From an uncultured bacterium (GTDB lineage: Bacteria; Hydrogenedentota; Hydrogenedentia; Hydrogenedentales; JAEUWI01): DNA of 27,696 nt. Of this stretch, positions 21,997 to 27,696 are shown in pieces. The notes beneath the pieces were generated by a model that saw only the letters and a program-made list of their open reading frames with translations, was not told the DNA's origin and made no database searches. Position 1 is the stretch's first letter. Each line of letters begins with the position of its first letter. The stretch spans positions 1-27,696 of the forward strand of contig CAXBPH010000074.1 of the NCBI GenBank assembly GCA_963977445.1, in the 5' to 3' direction. Made by a program: the position numbers and the translations under genes.

Positions 21997-23733
21997 CTAC
22001 ACCTTGTATCGCTGGAGGGAGACCACAAAGGGATACCAGACCATTGGGCTTACCAGGAGCACGCACCAGAAACCGAACCGGAAGTCGATGAGGTAGCTGT
22101 CTTTTTCGATGGTGGTATAGGCGGCACCGCCGAGGGTGAATAGGAAGACAAACAGGGTCAGGCCCACGGCCACGTCGCGCCCGTTAATCAGTTGGAAGCG
22201 CAGGCCATAGGCGAAGAGTGCCGCCAGGGTGATGGGGGGCGCAACCCACGTGGCGTAGTCCATGGCATAGCCCTGCATCGCGTCGTTGAGGCGTAAGCCA
22301 TCTAGGACGATGGGAATGAGTAAGGCAACAACGACGATCCAGAACTCCCGAGACAGGGGCAGGCGCGTACCGAGGCGGGAGGCCCACCAACGGCAAAGGA
22401 TTACGGTGGCCAGGATTGTGGACAGGGCATCGGCGCCGGGAATGGGGAAGTTTCGGGGGCTGAGATCGGAGATGTTGACAGAATTCGTCGTGTCGATCAG
22501 GGCGGGGAAGAGGCGGAGCATATGAATTGGCATATCTGTGAAACCCTTTAGCAGTTCAATTCCCACGGCGATGAGTCCGTAGATGGACAAAACAAACTGC
22601 ATCAAAAATACGTCGCTTGACATCAACACGTTTTTCATGTCGGGCGAACCGTAGCCGGTGAGGATCTGGGCAACGGCGGCGAGGGGCGTCCAGAATAGTG
22701 CCGGCCCTTGGGTGAGGAGGCCTGTCAACAGTACGGCGAGGGCGAGGGCGACCCATTTCGCACGCCCCAGGCGTTGGGAGGACAGGGGACGGGCGAGTAC
22801 AAAACGCCGGTAGGAAGAGCTGAGGTAATAGTGTGCCGTAGCGATAATCACGGGTACGCCGAACATTGCCATTGCGCCCAGGCCAATCGCCGCGACGCTA
22901 TCGTGGTTGCCGAACGCTTGGCTAAGCCCATATCCGCTACCGACGAGGATGGGGAGCCACATGGTGCATTGGCGCCATTCAAACCAGACCTGGGCCCAGA
23001 AGGGGGATGAGAAGCTTTTCTTGCGGCGGCGAGCAATGGGTGACATTCTGTGCAATTTTGCGGGCAGGACGCTGTCCATACGCCAACCACTGCGGAGTGC
23101 CCGTGCGGCCCAATAGGCCCATAGCGCTCCACCAATCGCTAACACGATAAAGAGGTTGGTGGATGGTCCGAAGGGTCCCACACGACTGAGGAGGAAGCCC
23201 CCCAAACCCATGACCACGAAACCCGTGGCGTAGACGAAGGCCCCCTGGAGAATGCCCAGTGCCCCAATCCAGAAGATGGCGGCTTGACCTTGCATGGCGA
23301 CAGCCGTCAGTAAAAGCAGGGGAAGCTGGTAGGGGGCATCGACTTCGAGAATGCTACGGGCGACGCCCCAGACCAAGGCAAGGGCGATGGCCGCCCCAAG
23401 CTGACAGAGCAAATTGGGTGCCAGGAGGTGATGGAGTCGAAGGGGTAGCGCCATGTTAATCCACGGGGGACGGAGGGAGTAACCATAATTGCTCTGGCAG
23501 AAGGCACTGTGGACGAGTCCCACGAAGGCAAGGACACCCCCCTGTGCATCGAGCCAGAAGCGTAGGGATTCTATATAGCCCTCCGTGTAAAGGGGAGTGC
23601 TTTTCGTATAGGCGGCCAGCAAGGCGTTTAAGCCGAGTAGGGTAAGTAGGATTGCCAGACCATCGGCCCTCGACCTGAATTCATACCAGAGCATGATGGG
23701 ATAGCGTATTGCCGTGCGGAGACGGTGGGTCAC
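21997..23733 (-). CDS. Polytopic membrane protein, two fused ABC-2 permease-like halves (paralogue 1)
   Basis: Many hydrophobic helices; repeated half-motifs MLWYEFR/AQVWFEWRQ and MALPLR/LARPLSSQRLGRAKW. GTG 23733 chosen for its GGAGGA SD and for length parity with paralogue 2. Confidence 0.8.
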   Translation of the reverse strand: MTHRLRTAIRYPIMLWYEFRSRADGLAILLTLLGLNALLAAYTKSTPLYTEGYIESLRFWLDAQGGVLAFVGLVHSAFCQSNYGYSLRPPWINMALPLRLHHLLAPNLLCQLGAAIALALVWGVARSILEVDAPYQLPLLLLTAVAMQGQAAIFWIGALGILQGAFVYATGFVVMGLGGFLLSRVGPFGPSTNLFIVLAIGGALWAYWAARALRSGWRMDSVLPAKLHRMSPIARRRKKSFSSPFWAQVWFEWRQCTMWLPILVGSGYGLSQAFGNHDSVAAIGLGAMAMFGVPVIIATAHYYLSSSYRRFVLARPLSSQRLGRAKWVALALAVLLTGLLTQGPALFWTPLAAVAQILTGYGSPDMKNVLMSSDVFLMQFVLSIYGLIAVGIELLKGFTDMPIHMLRLFPALIDTTNSVNISDLSPRNFPIPGADALSTILATVILCRWWASRLGTRLPLSREFWIVVVALLIPIVLDGLRLNDAMQGYAMDYATWVAPPITLAALFAYGLRFQLINGRDVAVGLTLFVFLFTLGGAAYTTIEKDSYLIDFRFGFWCVLLVSPMVWYPFVVSLQRYKV

Positions 23734-23880
23734 TTTGATTTCCTCCGGTGAAGGATTTCCGGGTGTTTTAGACATGTCCGAATCGGTCCTGGTTGTGGTA
23801 GATATTGAAGGTCGGGCCTTGCGCGTTGCCCCCATCGAATTGCTTCGGGGGCCTCGAACAGATTGGTGGGCCGTCAGCAT

Positions 23881-23976
23881 TGTGTCGCCCCTTCAGGGCT
23901 GTTGGATTTGGGATGGCCGTATTCCCAGGGCGTTGTTCGCCGCGGCGAACTATGCTGGGGCTGCCCCGTTGGGGCG
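23881..23976 (-). repeat. REP-like module family A, reverse orientation
   Basis: GCCCCTTCAGGGC, CCCAGGGCGTTG, GCCCCGTTGGGGC; imperfect inverse of 24704-24791. Confidence 0.8.
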
Positions 23977-24055
23977 TTGGTGGCTGGCCTGTGAGTCAGC
24001 GATGTCGCAATCATTGACCTGTATGTACCTGCTTGGATTGCGCGCGCCTCGTGTC

Positions 24056-24215
24056 GGGCAGAACCAAAATAGGCAAAAGGACGGACGGTACGTAACCGAA
24101 GGTCAACAAGGCCGCAGTAGCGCCCGTTGCTGGTTCTTCGGGGAGCCCTGTCGTTTTCAAGATGACTGCCGTCAACAAAGCAACGGCGATAGTGGCTGTG
24201 CCCAAAACAACGGCA
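24056..24215 (-). pseudogene. Fragment encoding two TM helices resembling the C-terminus of the flanking membrane paralogues (truncated copy)
   Basis: HAVVLGTATIAVALLTAVIL...LLTFGYVPSVLLPILVLP; similarity to copy 2 stops at the GTGTCGGGCAG REP remnant at 24051-24061. Confidence 0.45.
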
Positions 24216-24235
24216 TGGCCGCGGGTCTGCGGCCA

Positions 24236-24552
24236 CAGGGGGTTGGGCATTTCCGCCACGGCGGATCTTCGACCTGCCCGACACAAGGCCTATGGCGGTC
24301 GAACAAGGGCACCACACGATTGGCTGGTCAACTATGCGCTCCAGCGGATTCGCTCGACCTCCTGTTTGAGGATGTCGCATACGTAGAAATCCGGGGGTTG
24401 GTTTGAGCGGTGTACGCGTTGCATTGGGTAAGATGCCAATCCTTTTTTTCAATGCTGCTTTTTTCTCAGGCCCGCATGCGTTTGATTGAGCGACGCCCGC
24501 TTTGTGTCGGGCAGGTATGCCCAATCCGCTACGGCGGATCTTTGACCCCCTG
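24236..24552. repeat. REP-like family B inverted pair (30-bp arms, each with a 21-bp insert), copy 1
   Basis: Arms 24236-24286 and 24502-24552 are perfect reverse complements once inserts 24251-24271 and 24524-24544 are removed. Confidence 0.85.
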
Positions 24553-24703
24553 ATTGTGCGCGTCTCTTGCAGGGCCTCGCGTGGTTCATGTCGGGTCGAG
24601 AGGCCCGTCCCCATGTTATTTCGCTTACGTCTTGTGTCCCACATGGTGCGTATGCCTCGCTCGGTTCGAGGGGTGCGCCAGCGTGGGGGACTACTGCCTA
24701 TTC

Positions 24704-24791
24704 GGCCTGAAAGGCCAGCGCAGCTTAGCCCAGGGCAACGCCCTGGGTTTGGGTGTGCCCACCATCGGGAAAGCCCTGAAGGGGCGATACA
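24704..24791 (+). repeat. REP-like module family A, forward orientation
   Basis: Three hairpins: GGCCTGAAAGGCC, CCCAGGGCAACGCCCTGGG, GCCCTGAAGGGGC. Confidence 0.85.
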
Positions 24792-24814
24792 GTCTCTACC
24801 GTCACGTAGTTCGG

Positions 24815-25040
24815 TCAGAACATTTTTTCCTGCATTGCACGTAAAGACGGTCCATGTTTCTTGTGCCACGTCAGGTAGCAGGGTAGAACCACGATGGGCA
24901 AAAGGATGGATGGTACGTAACCGAAGGTCAACATGGCCGCAGTAGTGCCCTTTGCTGATTCTTCGGGGAGCCCTGTCGTTTTCAAGATGACTGCCGTCAA
25001 CAAAGCAACGGCGATAGTGGCTGTGCCCAAAACAACGGCA
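24815..25040 (-). pseudogene. 3'-terminal fragment of a further membrane paralogue, apparently with its own stop
   Basis: Two TM helices then LLPIVVLPCYLTWHKKH, matching the P-x4-P plus basic-tail ending of both full genes (SPMVWYPFVVSLQRYK; CPIIWLPLLYRMQRNA). Confidence 0.5.
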
Positions 25041-25060
25041 TGGCCGCGGGTCTGCGGCCA

Positions 25061-25377
25061 CAGGGGGTTGGGCATTTCCGCCACGGCGGATCTTCGACCT
25101 GCCCGACACAAGGCCTATGGCGGTCGAACAAGGGCACCACACGATTGGCTGGTCAACTATGCGCTCCAGCGGATTCGCTCGACCTCCTGTTTGAGGATGT
25201 CGCATACGTAGAAATCCGGGGGTTGGTTTGAGCGGTGTACGCGTTGCATTGGGTAAGATGCCAATCCTTTTTTTCAATGCTGCTTTTTTCTCAGGCCCGC
25301 ATGCGTTTGATTGAGCGACGCCCGCTTTGTGTCGGGCAGGTATGCCCAATCCGCCACGGCGGATCTTTGACCCCCTG
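25061..25377. repeat. REP-like family B inverted pair, copy 2
   Basis: Arms 25061-25111 and 25327-25377; inserts 25076-25096 and 25349-25369. Confidence 0.85.
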
Positions 25378-25528
25378 ATTGTGCGTGTCTTATGTAGGGC
25401 CTCGCGTGGTTCATGTCGGGTCGAGATGCCCGTCCCCACGTTATTGCGCTTGCGTGTCCCGCCCCGCATGGTGCTTATACCTCGCTGGGTTCGAGTGGTG
25501 AGCCGACGTGGGGGAATACCGTCTCTTC

Positions 25529-25616
25529 GGCCTGAAAGGCCAGCGCAGCTTAGCCCAGGGCAACGCCCTGGGTTTGCGTGCGCCCACCATCGGGATAGCC
25601 CTGAAGGGGCGACACA
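25529..25616 (+). repeat. REP-like module family A, forward orientation
   Basis: Same three hairpins as 24704-24791; ends AGCCCTGAAGGGGCGACACA, the exact inverse of 23881-23900. Confidence 0.85.
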
Positions 25617-25659
25617 AAAGTCCGGATGGCGCGATTTGGACACTTTTTTCGAAGTCGGT

Positions 25660-27363
25660 CTACGCATTGCGTTGCATCCGGTATAGGAGGGGGAGCCAGA
25701 TTATAGGACACATGAGCGTCATCGTAAGGTAGAAGGCAGTATCACTATCCACGAGTCCGGCGTTGTAGGGCAGATCATCCAAGACGTAGGCCAGCGAGGG
25801 GGCTATCACCGCGAAAGCCACAACGAGGCCATTTCGCTGGGTCTTGGAAATCAGGCTTGCGGAACGTGCGTAGTGGAGGGTAGCCATGAGTATTAGGGCA
25901 GATAGCACTAGGTGGACAAGGCCAACGTTTGCTTGAAGCAGCAGGTGATTTTCTACAGAGGTGTATAAACTTAGTAGTGGTACCAATACGGCGAGGGATG
26001 CCAGGGAAATCCACGCCCATGGTAGTGGCACGCTGCACCGTTTGTGCGCCAATGCACCCAGAATAAAAATCGTTACCGGTGGCACAAGAAAGATTGCCGA
26101 GATGCTCCACCATTCTGAATTGTCCTCGAAAGTAAAAATGGATTGGAGTGCTATCAGAATGGGTATGAGGGGCAACAGGGTCAGGCAGATAACGCGACCG
26201 CACGTGAGGGCTACAAACCATACCGGCGCGGTCGCCACGACCAGGGCGAATAAATAGGGCATGGCAACGCCTTCGGGTAGAAGCGGCGCGCCAGCGGCCG
26301 CCCGGAAGGCCAAAGCGGCACCAAGTATGCCCATGATACCGGTGAGGGCCAGGGCCGTGGCGATAGCCGCAGCCCAAAGACGGGCTTGCTTTATTCCGTC
26401 TTCCGCCAAGGGAACTGCCAGGAGAAATCGGGTGCTTTTCCGGCCGGTAAACTCCCAGAGAAAACCCACGGTAAAGGCAATGCCCAATCCCAATCCACCG
26501 ATTGGGCTCTCGTAGACATCAAATTCCATATCCGTCAGGATGGTGAGCGGCATCAGTACCAATAACGTCGCAGTAACGAGGAAAATCGGTAGCCACAGTG
26601 TCACATCCCTACACTCGAACCAGACTTGGGTCCAGATCGGGGTGGCGGGTAGTTTCTGGAGCAATCCCTTACGCGGTGCTCCGGCAGTCTTTCTCGGGAG
26701 ATGCTTCATCAATGCATTGTTTGTCCGTGTACCGCTACCGTGTCGTGCATCGTAACCGGCGTGTATGCAGAGGGCCGCAAGGGGTAGGGTGATGATGACT
26801 AGTGCGGCGGCGACCCGCAGGCTGGCATCGACAATGGGTGTGGTCACGAAGGCGCAGATAACAATCAAAGAGACGAACCACACAATCATTTTGCCTACGG
26901 TGACTGACGTGTCGTTTCGCACTTGCAGGAAGGTCGCCCACTGGAGGGAGAACGCGAGGACGACGGAGAACAGGAGCAGATTGACGGTCCAGATAGACCA
27001 GCGGTAGGAATTCATAAACAAATAGAAAAAACAGAGAAGGGTGTGCGTTGTCGTGAGCAGTATGCGATAAAACAGCGTCGTGCCGAGCAGCAGGGAAGTA
27101 CGAATCGGCAGCGTGGCGAGTCGGCCTGGAAAGTGGAAGTGCAGCCCGACAGCGTTTTGCTCGGTGAATATCAGGATGATACCGGCAAACCAGAGGAGGA
27201 TAGACGGATAGATGAAAAGTTCATCATCGACATATATCAAGGTATTGGAATCGACATAGGCTGCAATGAAAAAAATACCGACAGTGAAGGCCCATATGGC
27301 ACCCAGTACGAGGCCTTGCTGACGCCATTGAGCCCAGGCGAGCATATATAATTTTTTCCGCAT
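25660..27363 (-). CDS. Polytopic membrane protein, two fused ABC-2 permease-like halves (paralogue 2)
   Basis: LAWAQWRQ/TQVWFECR and LATLPIRT/LLAVPLAED half-motifs; WLPI shared with paralogue 1; SD GGAG. Confidence 0.82.
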   Translation of the reverse strand: MRKKLYMLAWAQWRQQGLVLGAIWAFTVGIFFIAAYVDSNTLIYVDDELFIYPSILLWFAGIILIFTEQNAVGLHFHFPGRLATLPIRTSLLLGTTLFYRILLTTTHTLLCFFYLFMNSYRWSIWTVNLLLFSVVLAFSLQWATFLQVRNDTSVTVGKMIVWFVSLIVICAFVTTPIVDASLRVAAALVIITLPLAALCIHAGYDARHGSGTRTNNALMKHLPRKTAGAPRKGLLQKLPATPIWTQVWFECRDVTLWLPIFLVTATLLVLMPLTILTDMEFDVYESPIGGLGLGIAFTVGFLWEFTGRKSTRFLLAVPLAEDGIKQARLWAAAIATALALTGIMGILGAALAFRAAAGAPLLPEGVAMPYLFALVVATAPVWFVALTCGRVICLTLLPLIPILIALQSIFTFEDNSEWWSISAIFLVPPVTIFILGALAHKRCSVPLPWAWISLASLAVLVPLLSLYTSVENHLLLQANVGLVHLVLSALILMATLHYARSASLISKTQRNGLVVAFAVIAPSLAYVLDDLPYNAGLVDSDTAFYLTMTLMCPIIWLPLLYRMQRNA

Positions 27364-27389: not shown

Positions 27390-27696
27390 GTGTCGCCCCT
27401 TCAGGGCTGTTAGATAGGGATGGGTCGTATTTCCAGGACGTTGTTCGCCGCGGCGAACTATGCTGCGGCTGCCCCGTTGGGGCGTTTTTGGTTGACCTGT
27501 GAGTCAGCGATGTCGCAATCACTGTCCTGTATGTACCTGCTTGAATTGCGCGCGCCTCGTGTCGGGCAGAACCAAAATAGGCAAAAGGACGGACGGTACG
27601 TAACCGAAGGTCAACAAGGCCGCAGTAGCGCCCGTTGCTGGTTCTTCGGGGAGCCCTGTCGTTTTCAAGATGACTGCCGTCAACAAAGCAACGGCG
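27390..27696. repeat. Composite repeat unit copy 3, truncated by the window edge
   Basis: Direct repeat of 23882-24188 at offset 3508; begins with the reverse REP-A module 26 nt upstream of paralogue 2. Confidence 0.92.

Follow-up and report, generated by a model that had tools for sequence, protein, structure and literature searches.

In a 27,696-nt stretch of DNA from an uncultured bacterium of the Hydrogenedentota (hereafter, the window), we found that a 21-nt block interrupting both arms of an inverted repeat is a member of a widespread REP-like family of 20-22-nt repeats, and that the 30-nt arm interrupted by it is itself a REP, of a family whose members flank RAYT (Y1/HUH) genes of this genome. 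Very small repeat elements are already known as a kind, and no new kind of system is described here, only an unfamiliar form of it: a REP-type singlet behaves as an insertion unit in REPs of other families; its empty and filled sites are known to the base, and its core is common to several phyla. The best explanation, which seems to us on balance, if narrowly, probable, is that REP-type elements of 20-22 nt were inserted without footprint into other repeats by a Y1 HUH enzyme acting in trans, and that the composites so formed then spread. In what follows, G000 is the genome of the window and C74 its contig, G001, G003, G004, G005 and G008 are congeners, and H1-H7 are the host-repeat contexts.

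The left arm of the inverted repeat (24236..24286, + strand), a REP of context H1 with a GGGCA-type stem, consists of CAGGGGGTTGGGCAT (24236-24250), TTCCGCCACGGCGGATCTTCG (24251-24271) and ACCTGCCCGACACAA (24272-24286), with the micro-element lying in the hairpin loop (site A). The inverted right arm (24502..24552, - strand), also of H1, consists of TTGTGTCGGGCAGGTATGCCCA (24502-24523), ATCCGCTACGGCGGATCTTTG (24524-24544) and ACCCCCTG (24545-24552), with the micro-element lying in the G-rich tail beside the hairpin foot (site B). The 21 nt of the left insert form the hairpin TCCGC-CACG-GCGGA and the tail TCTTCG(A), and the 21 nt of the right insert form the hairpin ATCCGC-TACG-GCGGAT and the tail CTTTG(A). 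Removal of both 21-mers leaves arms that are exact reverse complements over 30/30 nt, which bears out the claim, made in an earlier sequence-only reading of this DNA, that 21-nt inserts interrupt a perfect 30-bp inverted repeat. The inserts were also correctly described there as having the same orientation at different positions: both are on the + strand, between arm positions 15/16 and 22/23, respectively, and ACC stands directly 3' of each. The 20-mer core occurs four times in the window, against 0.01 occurrences expected. Because of an A/A ambiguity, the right insert could also be placed one base further on, at 24525-24545; for the left insert, 24252-24272 (TCC..CGA, under the boundary YCC..YGA) is as good a reading, and it leaves CATTCC as the loop, the commonest one of empty copies. 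When folded as DNA, each insert formed a hairpin of 5-6 bp (-4.5 and -6.1 kcal/mol, with z of -2.2 and -4.3 against shuffles), and the left arm was folded as an outer stem around an inner hairpin.

A 215-nt spacer (24287..24501) separates the arms, and a search of G000 gave no match to it beyond its tandem copy and contig C395; the 317-bp inverted-repeat unit was rejected as a MITE on the ground that this interior has no other genomic copy. The REP pair is carried by two tandem 825-bp units (24056..25705) situated between paralogous membrane-protein genes, and positions 24056-24791 and 24881-25616, at a spacing of 825 bp, are 94.6% identical over 736 nt. In the second unit, the left arm is at 25061..25111 (+ strand; micro-element at 25076-25096) and the right arm at 25327..25377 (- strand; micro-element at 25349-25369). 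The repetition of the pattern in this second copy, to which the earlier reading had pointed, is therefore real at those positions, but it is a plain tandem duplication, and because copy 2 lies inside the 825-bp duplication it does not constitute an independent case.

The family to which the window 21-mer belongs has as its consensus an imperfect hairpin, YCC-N-CC, a 2-3-nt loop and GGCG-SR, followed by the tail TCTWCGA. Six seeds allowing up to three mismatches gave 120 matches in G000, and a generic pattern gave 130, compared with 1 for a reversed-pattern control. The window subtype is a perfect 5-6-bp hairpin; in the commonest subtype, TCCTCCTGCGGCGCA, two of the six pairs (2.14 and 4.12) are mostly mismatched. 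Covariation was observed at pair 1.15 only (T.A versus C.G), where 38 of 43 distinct hairpins are paired, a figure reached by 0/1000 shuffles, and relatedness of the copies could mimic or inflate this signal. On the complementary strand, TCG(A/T)AGA precedes the hairpin, so that a GAAG/GTAG tag stands one base 5' of the hairpin foot, an arrangement resembling that of GTAG-tagged REPs (PMC3733652) and of the ends, made up of guide and hairpin, on which Y1 enzymes act (PMC6006769). Among 95 copies in G000, the tag tetranucleotide is GAAG in 58, GTAG in 16 and some other sequence in 21; among the congeners, GTAG is found in 12/21 copies in G003 and GAAG in 17/24 copies in G004. The accessible portion of PMC3733652 gives GYAG, GYRG, GTRG, GTMG and GTGG as degenerate forms of the tag, and GAAG is absent from that list. 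The same portion describes GTAG-tagged REPs as 20-40 bp palindromes with a stem-loop, present in many dispersed, mostly extragenic copies; the 20-22-nt element is such a palindrome, and its copies are likewise many, dispersed and mostly extragenic, lying in repeat-rich intergenic DNA when judged overall. Rfam gave no match at gathering score in the window and none covering the micro-element at E<=1 in C395 or two host loci, and the 13-mer string TCGAAGATCCGCC was found in no microbial paper of the literature searched, which held one unrelated match.

That the interrupted arms are themselves REPs became evident from their empty counterparts. The earlier reading had proposed a genome search for the uninterrupted 30-bp arm, and G000 indeed holds about 88 empty arms: in a two-half search (<=3 substitutions per half), GGGGTTGGGCAT and WCCTGCCCGACA abut without gap at 88 places. 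By eye, nearly all of these empty H1 copies form one hairpin, with covarying stems GGGCA/TGCCC, GACCA/TGGTC, AGGCA/TGCCT, GGACA/TGTCC and GGCCA/TGGCC. G000 has 16 matches to the Y1 transposase family, and H1-family REPs flank Y1 genes on contigs C31, C435, C220 and C48, the REP flanking the RAYT gene on C31 being of the GGGCA type, as in the left arm. In NCBIfam, 'REP-associated tyrosine transposase' was the best or sole match for four of five representative Y1 proteins, of which one passed the cut-off and three fell short of it (65-73 bits, cut-off 80), and the fifth was matched as an IS200/IS605 transposase. REPs of H5 flank the RAYT gene on C157 and those of H2b the gene on C9, and both empty and filled copies stand beside each gene; at the C9 gene, the upstream copy is empty and the downstream copy is filled, with near-identical flanks. 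Y1 genes number 12-19 in each of five congeners, and every genome holding the micro-element has many of them.

Almost every micro-element copy in G000 is nested in another repeat, and almost none lies in unique DNA; a BLAST of 40-nt flanks for copies in unique DNA is too insensitive for short REP hosts, and the few candidates for such copies were rejected as REP variants or as 3-mismatch chance matches without a following AC. At least seven named host-repeat contexts with fixed sites are present in G000, several of which flank Y1 genes, and every host tested has empty copies as well. Site A in the H1 loop is filled in 23 copies, with stem types GGGCA, GACCA, GGACA, AGACA and AGGCA, versus the 88 empty. 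Site B in the H1 G-tail is filled in six copies in G000, only on C74 and C395, and for three of these the REP has site A filled as well; what separates the two units in the doubly filled REP of C395 is a stem arm of the host itself. Insertion at H2 site 1 is after CGCACGAA or CACCCGAA, and insertion at H2 site 2 is at GGATCG|CG. Empty and filled copies, respectively, number 105 and about 40 for H2a/c site 1, 25 and 11 for H2b, 131 and 13 for H2 site 2, 36 and 6-7 for the palindrome H4, and 70 and 29 for H5, the REP flanking the C157 RAYT gene; H6, H7 and a few singles make up the other contexts in G000.

The same H2 site was also seen to hold other blocks of 20-24 nt, one type starting with CCCGTCAGG (about 7 copies) and a second type starting with CCCGCTCTT and ending with CGTCTACGCCG (about 11 copies). 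Judged by sequence, either the H2 site accepts several small inserts or these other blocks are divergent relatives of the micro-element.

The joints were defined with 90 filled copies having flanks of at least 40 nt, the element being taken as YCC..YGA. An empty paralogue was found for 55 of the 90, and none by this test for the other 35; the two flanks abut exactly (gap 0) in 54 of the 55, and the best pairs of empty and filled flanks are identical at 136/142, 133/140 and 120/123 positions. With 54 exact joins, target duplication is absent, and the earlier description of a discrete, orientation-specific unit residing in other REPs without target duplication stands. After ..YG (<=2 mismatches), AC follows at 80/90 copies and ACC at 53/90, against backgrounds of 5.5% and 1.8%, and AC follows in 37/45 distinct contexts. 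By these frequencies, the stricter claim that the element is always 5' of ACC is nearly true. As a boundary, however, 'before ACC' fails: empty H5 copies read GGGCCG|CCTGC, and most empty H1 arms have the loop CATT|CCTG, the commonest of that family. An element YCC..YGA standing 5' of C agrees with every empty site and is therefore the reading we prefer; where A precedes the element, the originally suggested N-YCC..YG before AC comes to the same thing. On the tag strand, insertion is 3' of ...SG(T), and the flank motif, at 1-3 bases, is too short to separate target from element end. Three findings had been named at the outset as fatal to the earlier reading, namely that no empty arm exists, that the 21-mer occurs only in the window contexts and that its flanks elsewhere show no ACC preference, and none of these holds.

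As to the direction of change, the empty state looks ancestral from sequence comparison. Empty copies outnumber filled copies in every host. Orthologues of the C157-type RAYT gene (58-81% identity) are present in 7/8 congeners, and the H5-like REPs beside them are filled in 0/15 cases over six loci of five congeners, with 2/5 filled in G000; three further loci gave no H5-like REP by the pattern used.

A 410-nt MITE-like repeat, represented by a copy at C149:5240-5659 (locus L001, about 145-557) and by about 27 others, carries terminal inverted repeats GGTTCATGGGCAAT / ATTGCCCATGAACC and two inverted internal REP modules of H2, and has no Rfam match. In an alignment of 27 copies, 21 could be scored at both sites, of which 13 are right-filled, 3 left-filled, 5 filled at neither site and 0 at both. 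The tree of these copies is star-like, and the left-filled state cannot be placed on its starred branches with fewer than two changes; judged from the sequences, a single origin of the right-filled state is possible, and two empty copies (C221 and C321) lie inside the clade of right-filled copies.

Hairpins are prone to deletion, and the filled form could in principle be ancestral in each host, with the empty copies arising by precise deletion of the hairpin, for example through slippage or hairpin excision in replication, as the two empty copies within the right-filled clade might suggest. The greater number of empty copies in every host, the uniformly empty REPs at the orthologous C157-type genes of five congeners, the lack of any copy filled on both sides among the 21 scored MITE copies, and the absence of a flanking direct repeat to drive slippage all stand against this polarity, to which we attach very little credence. 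Taken together, the distinct hosts and sites, the five stem subfamilies at site A and the MITE states lead us to count at least ten separate insertion events in G000.

The micro-element family is present in 9/9 genomes of the genus, even though one neighbouring protein has only 28-39% identity from species to species. The 22-nt class gave 65 matches in G000 and 5-26 in 8/8 congeners, and outside the genus it gave 1-2 matches in 4/32 genomes, with 0-1 for controls; the 21-nt class was again found in 9/9 genomes of the genus, and matches per genome within the genus range over 5-65 and 5-45 for the two length classes. The copies in G003 and G004 are again nested in palindromic repeats, some of these hosts being as in G000, including H5-like repeats and H2 site 2. 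When one genome per species was scanned with a tag-strand-anchored pattern, at least 117 stretches matched, and 44 of the 80 listed were inspected; among the matches listed, two to four each come from MAGs of the Planctomycetota (Phycisphaerae, Sedimentisphaerales, Planctomycetaceae and Pirellulales), Sumerlaeota, Desulfobacterales and Hydrogenedentota, and the actinomycete matches were rejected as chance matches to one conserved coding stretch. Five distant MAGs hold 19-53 copies each (controls 0-1), with TCGAAGATCCGCC invariant and the loop genome-specific, and the element is multi-copy in MAGs of the Phycisphaerae, Planctomycetia, Sedimentisphaerales and Sumerlaeota. In a Phycisphaerae MAG (locus L214, 497-606 and 2455-2520), head-to-tail 22-nt arrays of 3-5 copies were observed upstream of two paralogous genes.

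Such strong conservation of the 13-mer across phyla, together with the placement of the element at the loops or feet of host hairpins and the frequent transcription of REPs described in the available text of PMC3733652, would also suit a functional module, that is, a protein-binding or RNA-structural hairpin that selection has repeatedly added to structured repeats or transcripts and that is not mobile. No Rfam family matches the element, however, and point mutation could not have produced the same 20-22-nt block, exact in its boundaries, in hosts that are unrelated; the tandem 22-nt arrays of the Phycisphaerae MAG also speak against such a module, which would still require an insertion mechanism, and we consider it highly improbable.

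Some filled arrangements recur beyond the window. In G004, a GGGCA REP filled at site A lies upstream of a related membrane-protein gene and its inverted partner is empty; the spacer of this REP pair is not alignable with that of the window, so that orthology of the two pairs could not be demonstrated. A REP doubly filled at sites A and B was found, among the matches listed, in another Hydrogenedentota MAG (locus L162), and the H3 arrangement is common to G000 and G003. Because filled types recur in G004 and in another MAG, filled REPs can be regarded as established, propagating composites. The two arms had originally been taken as two separate insertions, and they do appear, from their sequences, to stem from two distinct insertions during the history of this REP family, which, in view of G004 and L162, need not have taken place at this locus. 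Orthologous comparison of empty and filled states between strains is ruled out by congener divergence (28-39% identity for the neighbour protein), and three public read runs contain only 0.05 of the sampled words of window positions 23900-24900.

These recurrences bear on whether the element merely hitch-hikes, that is, whether a few ancient insertions made composite REPs, which host RAYT enzymes or duplication then spread, while the element itself is no longer, or never was, mobile. Since copies are almost never found in unique DNA, hitch-hiking on host repeats could explain most of the copy number, and the filled REP of G004, the doubly filled REP of L162, the H3 arrangement of G000 and G003, the fit of the right-filled MITE copies to one starred clade and the plain tandem duplication behind copy 2 of the window are all in keeping with it. 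As the whole explanation it is nevertheless rather unlikely: at least ten host/site combinations in G000, plus others in G003 and G004, need separate insertions; one and the same site has been filled in REPs of five stem subfamilies; the left-filled MITE state requires at least two changes; and the core is invariant across phyla although the hosts differ, which argues for continued protein recognition. We return to insertion in trans followed by spread of the composites, under which most present copies, the window copies included, are probably inherited composites and not fresh local insertions.

According to this preferred explanation, the tag and hairpin layout would be recognised by a Y1 HUH enzyme of the RAYT/IS200 type, which would insert the element in trans as single-stranded DNA, 3' of ...SG(T) on the tag strand and 5' of C on the hairpin strand. 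Insertion would be in a fixed orientation and confined to a few set positions in other repeats, several RAYT-flanking REPs among them, and the filled REP would then multiply as a composite together with its host. The hosts are hairpin-forming repeats, and the many Y1 genes in each genome with the element are in keeping with such a route. Several points weigh against the HUH reading: there is one hairpin in 20-22 nt, as opposed to two in the IS200/IS605 and REPIN models in the available portions of PMC6006769 and PMC3116915, and the hairpin of the majority subfamily TCCTCCTGCGGCGCA is poor, with GAAG as the tag in 58/95 copies and GTAG in only 16/95.

The HUH cut-and-join route proposed in the sequence-only reading is made plausible by the 16 Y1 genes of G000, but adjacency links no enzyme to the element. 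The check suggested there, for the hairpin next to a Y1 transposase, came out negative, with no free copies flanking Y1 genes in G000; more broadly, no Y1 gene flanked by free micro-element copies was found in G000 or, by comparison of the listed positions, in five congeners (G001, G003, G004, G005 and G008), and near the C157, C9 and C31 Y1 genes the element is present only as nested copies. A RAYT gene flanked by its own REPs is thus a feature present for the H1 arms and absent for the micro-element in G000. Assignment of the micro-element to one Y1 gene by adjacency was accordingly rejected for G000 and the five congeners, and the C157-type RAYT was rejected as the micro-element's own, its REPs being empty in five congeners. 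In a Sedimentisphaerales MAG, 4/11 Y1 genes have a micro-element copy within 1 kb.

Several further arrangements around Y1 genes were noted. Two of the Y1 genes of the Sedimentisphaerales MAG (loci L211 and L212) lie in units of about 3.8 kb, each comprising a RAYT-like gene and another ORF; these units are bounded by direct repeats of about 400 nt with one micro-element copy each, and may be a composite mobile unit. At C168:12900-13300 (locus L078), an IS200-like tnpA is followed downstream by a tandem array of three units, each of about 115 nt and with hairpins ATCCGC-TTC-GCGGAT and GTCC(A/G)C-TTC-GCGGAC; the former resembles the window micro-element hairpin, with different tails, and may serve as a lead. 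On C363 (about 230-560), the similarity between a RAYT-like gene of the C184/C68 type and its paralogues ends directly behind the motif HVW, and a palindromic repeat with a micro-element-like block lies at the break, so that the gene looks interrupted.

A route other than HUH chemistry, for instance through an RNA intermediate, is a further alternative. Elhai and co-workers reportedly described, in 2008, small dispersed repeats (SDR, families SDR1-8 in Nostoc) of 21-27 nt in Nostoc and its relatives, nested in other repeats and in themselves, which are said to have been proposed among the smallest mobile elements, with an RNA-mediated mechanism suggested; to our knowledge, they have no GTAG-type tag. 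The micro-element is like these repeats in size and nesting and unlike them in phylum and, probably, in sequence. Nothing observed here points to a reverse transcriptase, and the tag and hairpin layout and the abundant Y1 genes fit HUH chemistry better, so that we think an RNA or other non-HUH route most unlikely and keep to a Y1 HUH enzyme in trans.

REP/REPIN-RAYT (TnpA-REP) systems (PMC3116915, PMC2817692, PMC6006769 and PMC3733652) share with the micro-element a short GC-rich imperfect palindrome, extragenic copies that number from tens to about a hundred, lineage-specific variants and many RAYT genes per genome; the tetranucleotide 5' of the hairpin foot looks GTAG-like in the micro-element too, and the window's host arms are REPs of the ordinary RAYT-flanking kind. 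Unlike a REPIN as portrayed there, the micro-element is gained or lost as a single 20-22-nt hairpin filling single sites, and not as an inverted REP doublet. It further differs from REP/RAYT systems in lying inside other REP families at fixed positions with a tag that is mostly GAAG, in having no RAYT gene with free copies at its sides (G000 and five congeners), and in its core 13-mer being common to several phyla, whereas REP families are usually tied to one RAYT lineage.

REPs within palindromes have been reported by Di Nocera et al. 2013 (PMC3733652), whose available text describes GTAG-23 of T. roseum in CCGSSCC(n3,4)GGSSCGG, with hundreds of unfilled targets, and REP dimers of A. variabilis and H. 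neapolitanus within long palindromes. The present case resembles these in that a small tagged REP lies inside another palindrome, with unfilled targets in one of the published cases. It differs from them, as they appear in that text, in that the targets are REP families beside Y1 genes, with several hosts and two sites in one host, and in that the base-fixed boundaries derive from 54 exact pairs of empty and filled sites.

With IS200/IS605 elements, as outlined in the available part of PMC6006769, the micro-element appears to share orientation-specific insertion at a short flank motif without target duplication, and the logic of a hairpin with a guide tetranucleotide. A single-strand mechanism, as in IS200/IS605, would by analogy explain the preference for hairpin-forming targets. 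In contrast to those elements as outlined there, the micro-element has no separate left and right ends and no transposase gene inside or beside it, and its flank motif is of only 1-3 bases.

The replicative unit and the insertion route of REPs remain unsettled, and the REPIN model, as given in the accessible portion of PMC3116915, holds single REPs to be dead remnants. We put forward, as a possibility and tentatively, that a single GAAG/GTAG-tagged hairpin of 20-22 nt may be a complete mobile unit, moved in trans by a Y1 HUH enzyme conserved across several phyla (Hydrogenedentota, classes of Planctomycetota, and Sumerlaeota), and that it may act as a parasite of REPs with a preference for the single-stranded hairpins of REPs from other families. 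If this were true, the micro-element would be among the smallest transposable DNAs, and REP singlets would be replicative units in their own right. The dozens of base-exact empty and filled sites in several hosts are defined substrates for in vitro assays of Y1/RAYT cleavage and strand transfer, and the cross-phylum core is a marker for finding the responsible enzyme by co-occurrence. Were the element to hitch-hike only, the result would amount to hardly more than a neat account of composite REPs from a phylum about which little is known.

In the window itself, two paralogous genes on the - strand (21997-23880 and 25660-27363) leave between them a gap that is filled by the repeat array; they encode multi-pass membrane proteins, which were matched to no Pfam family. 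The best relatives of the neighbouring membrane protein are only 28-39% identical, and 1-3 tandem paralogues are found in these relatives. The upstream regions of the two genes are repeated as well, with 95% identity over 308 nt between 23882-24188 and 27390-27696. A 597-codon ORF (23874-25667, - strand), which spans the repeat array and overlaps each membrane-protein gene by a few bases, was rejected as a gene, being arginine-rich, without a Pfam match and probably not coding; we take it as spurious because, by a rough estimate, tandem duplication and GC-rich repeats make so long a frame unsurprising. A dispersed repeat, GGCCTGAAAGGCC..CCCAGGGCAACGCCCTGGG, at 24700-24748 and 25525-25573 of the window (- strand), resembles the Acido-Lenti-1 RNA motif (RF01687), its copies on C395 (locus L002, 214-258 and 2465-2509) scoring 33.8 bits, under the gathering score of 37. 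This repeat has many copies in G000, and a similar sequence adjoins an IS200-like gene on C77.
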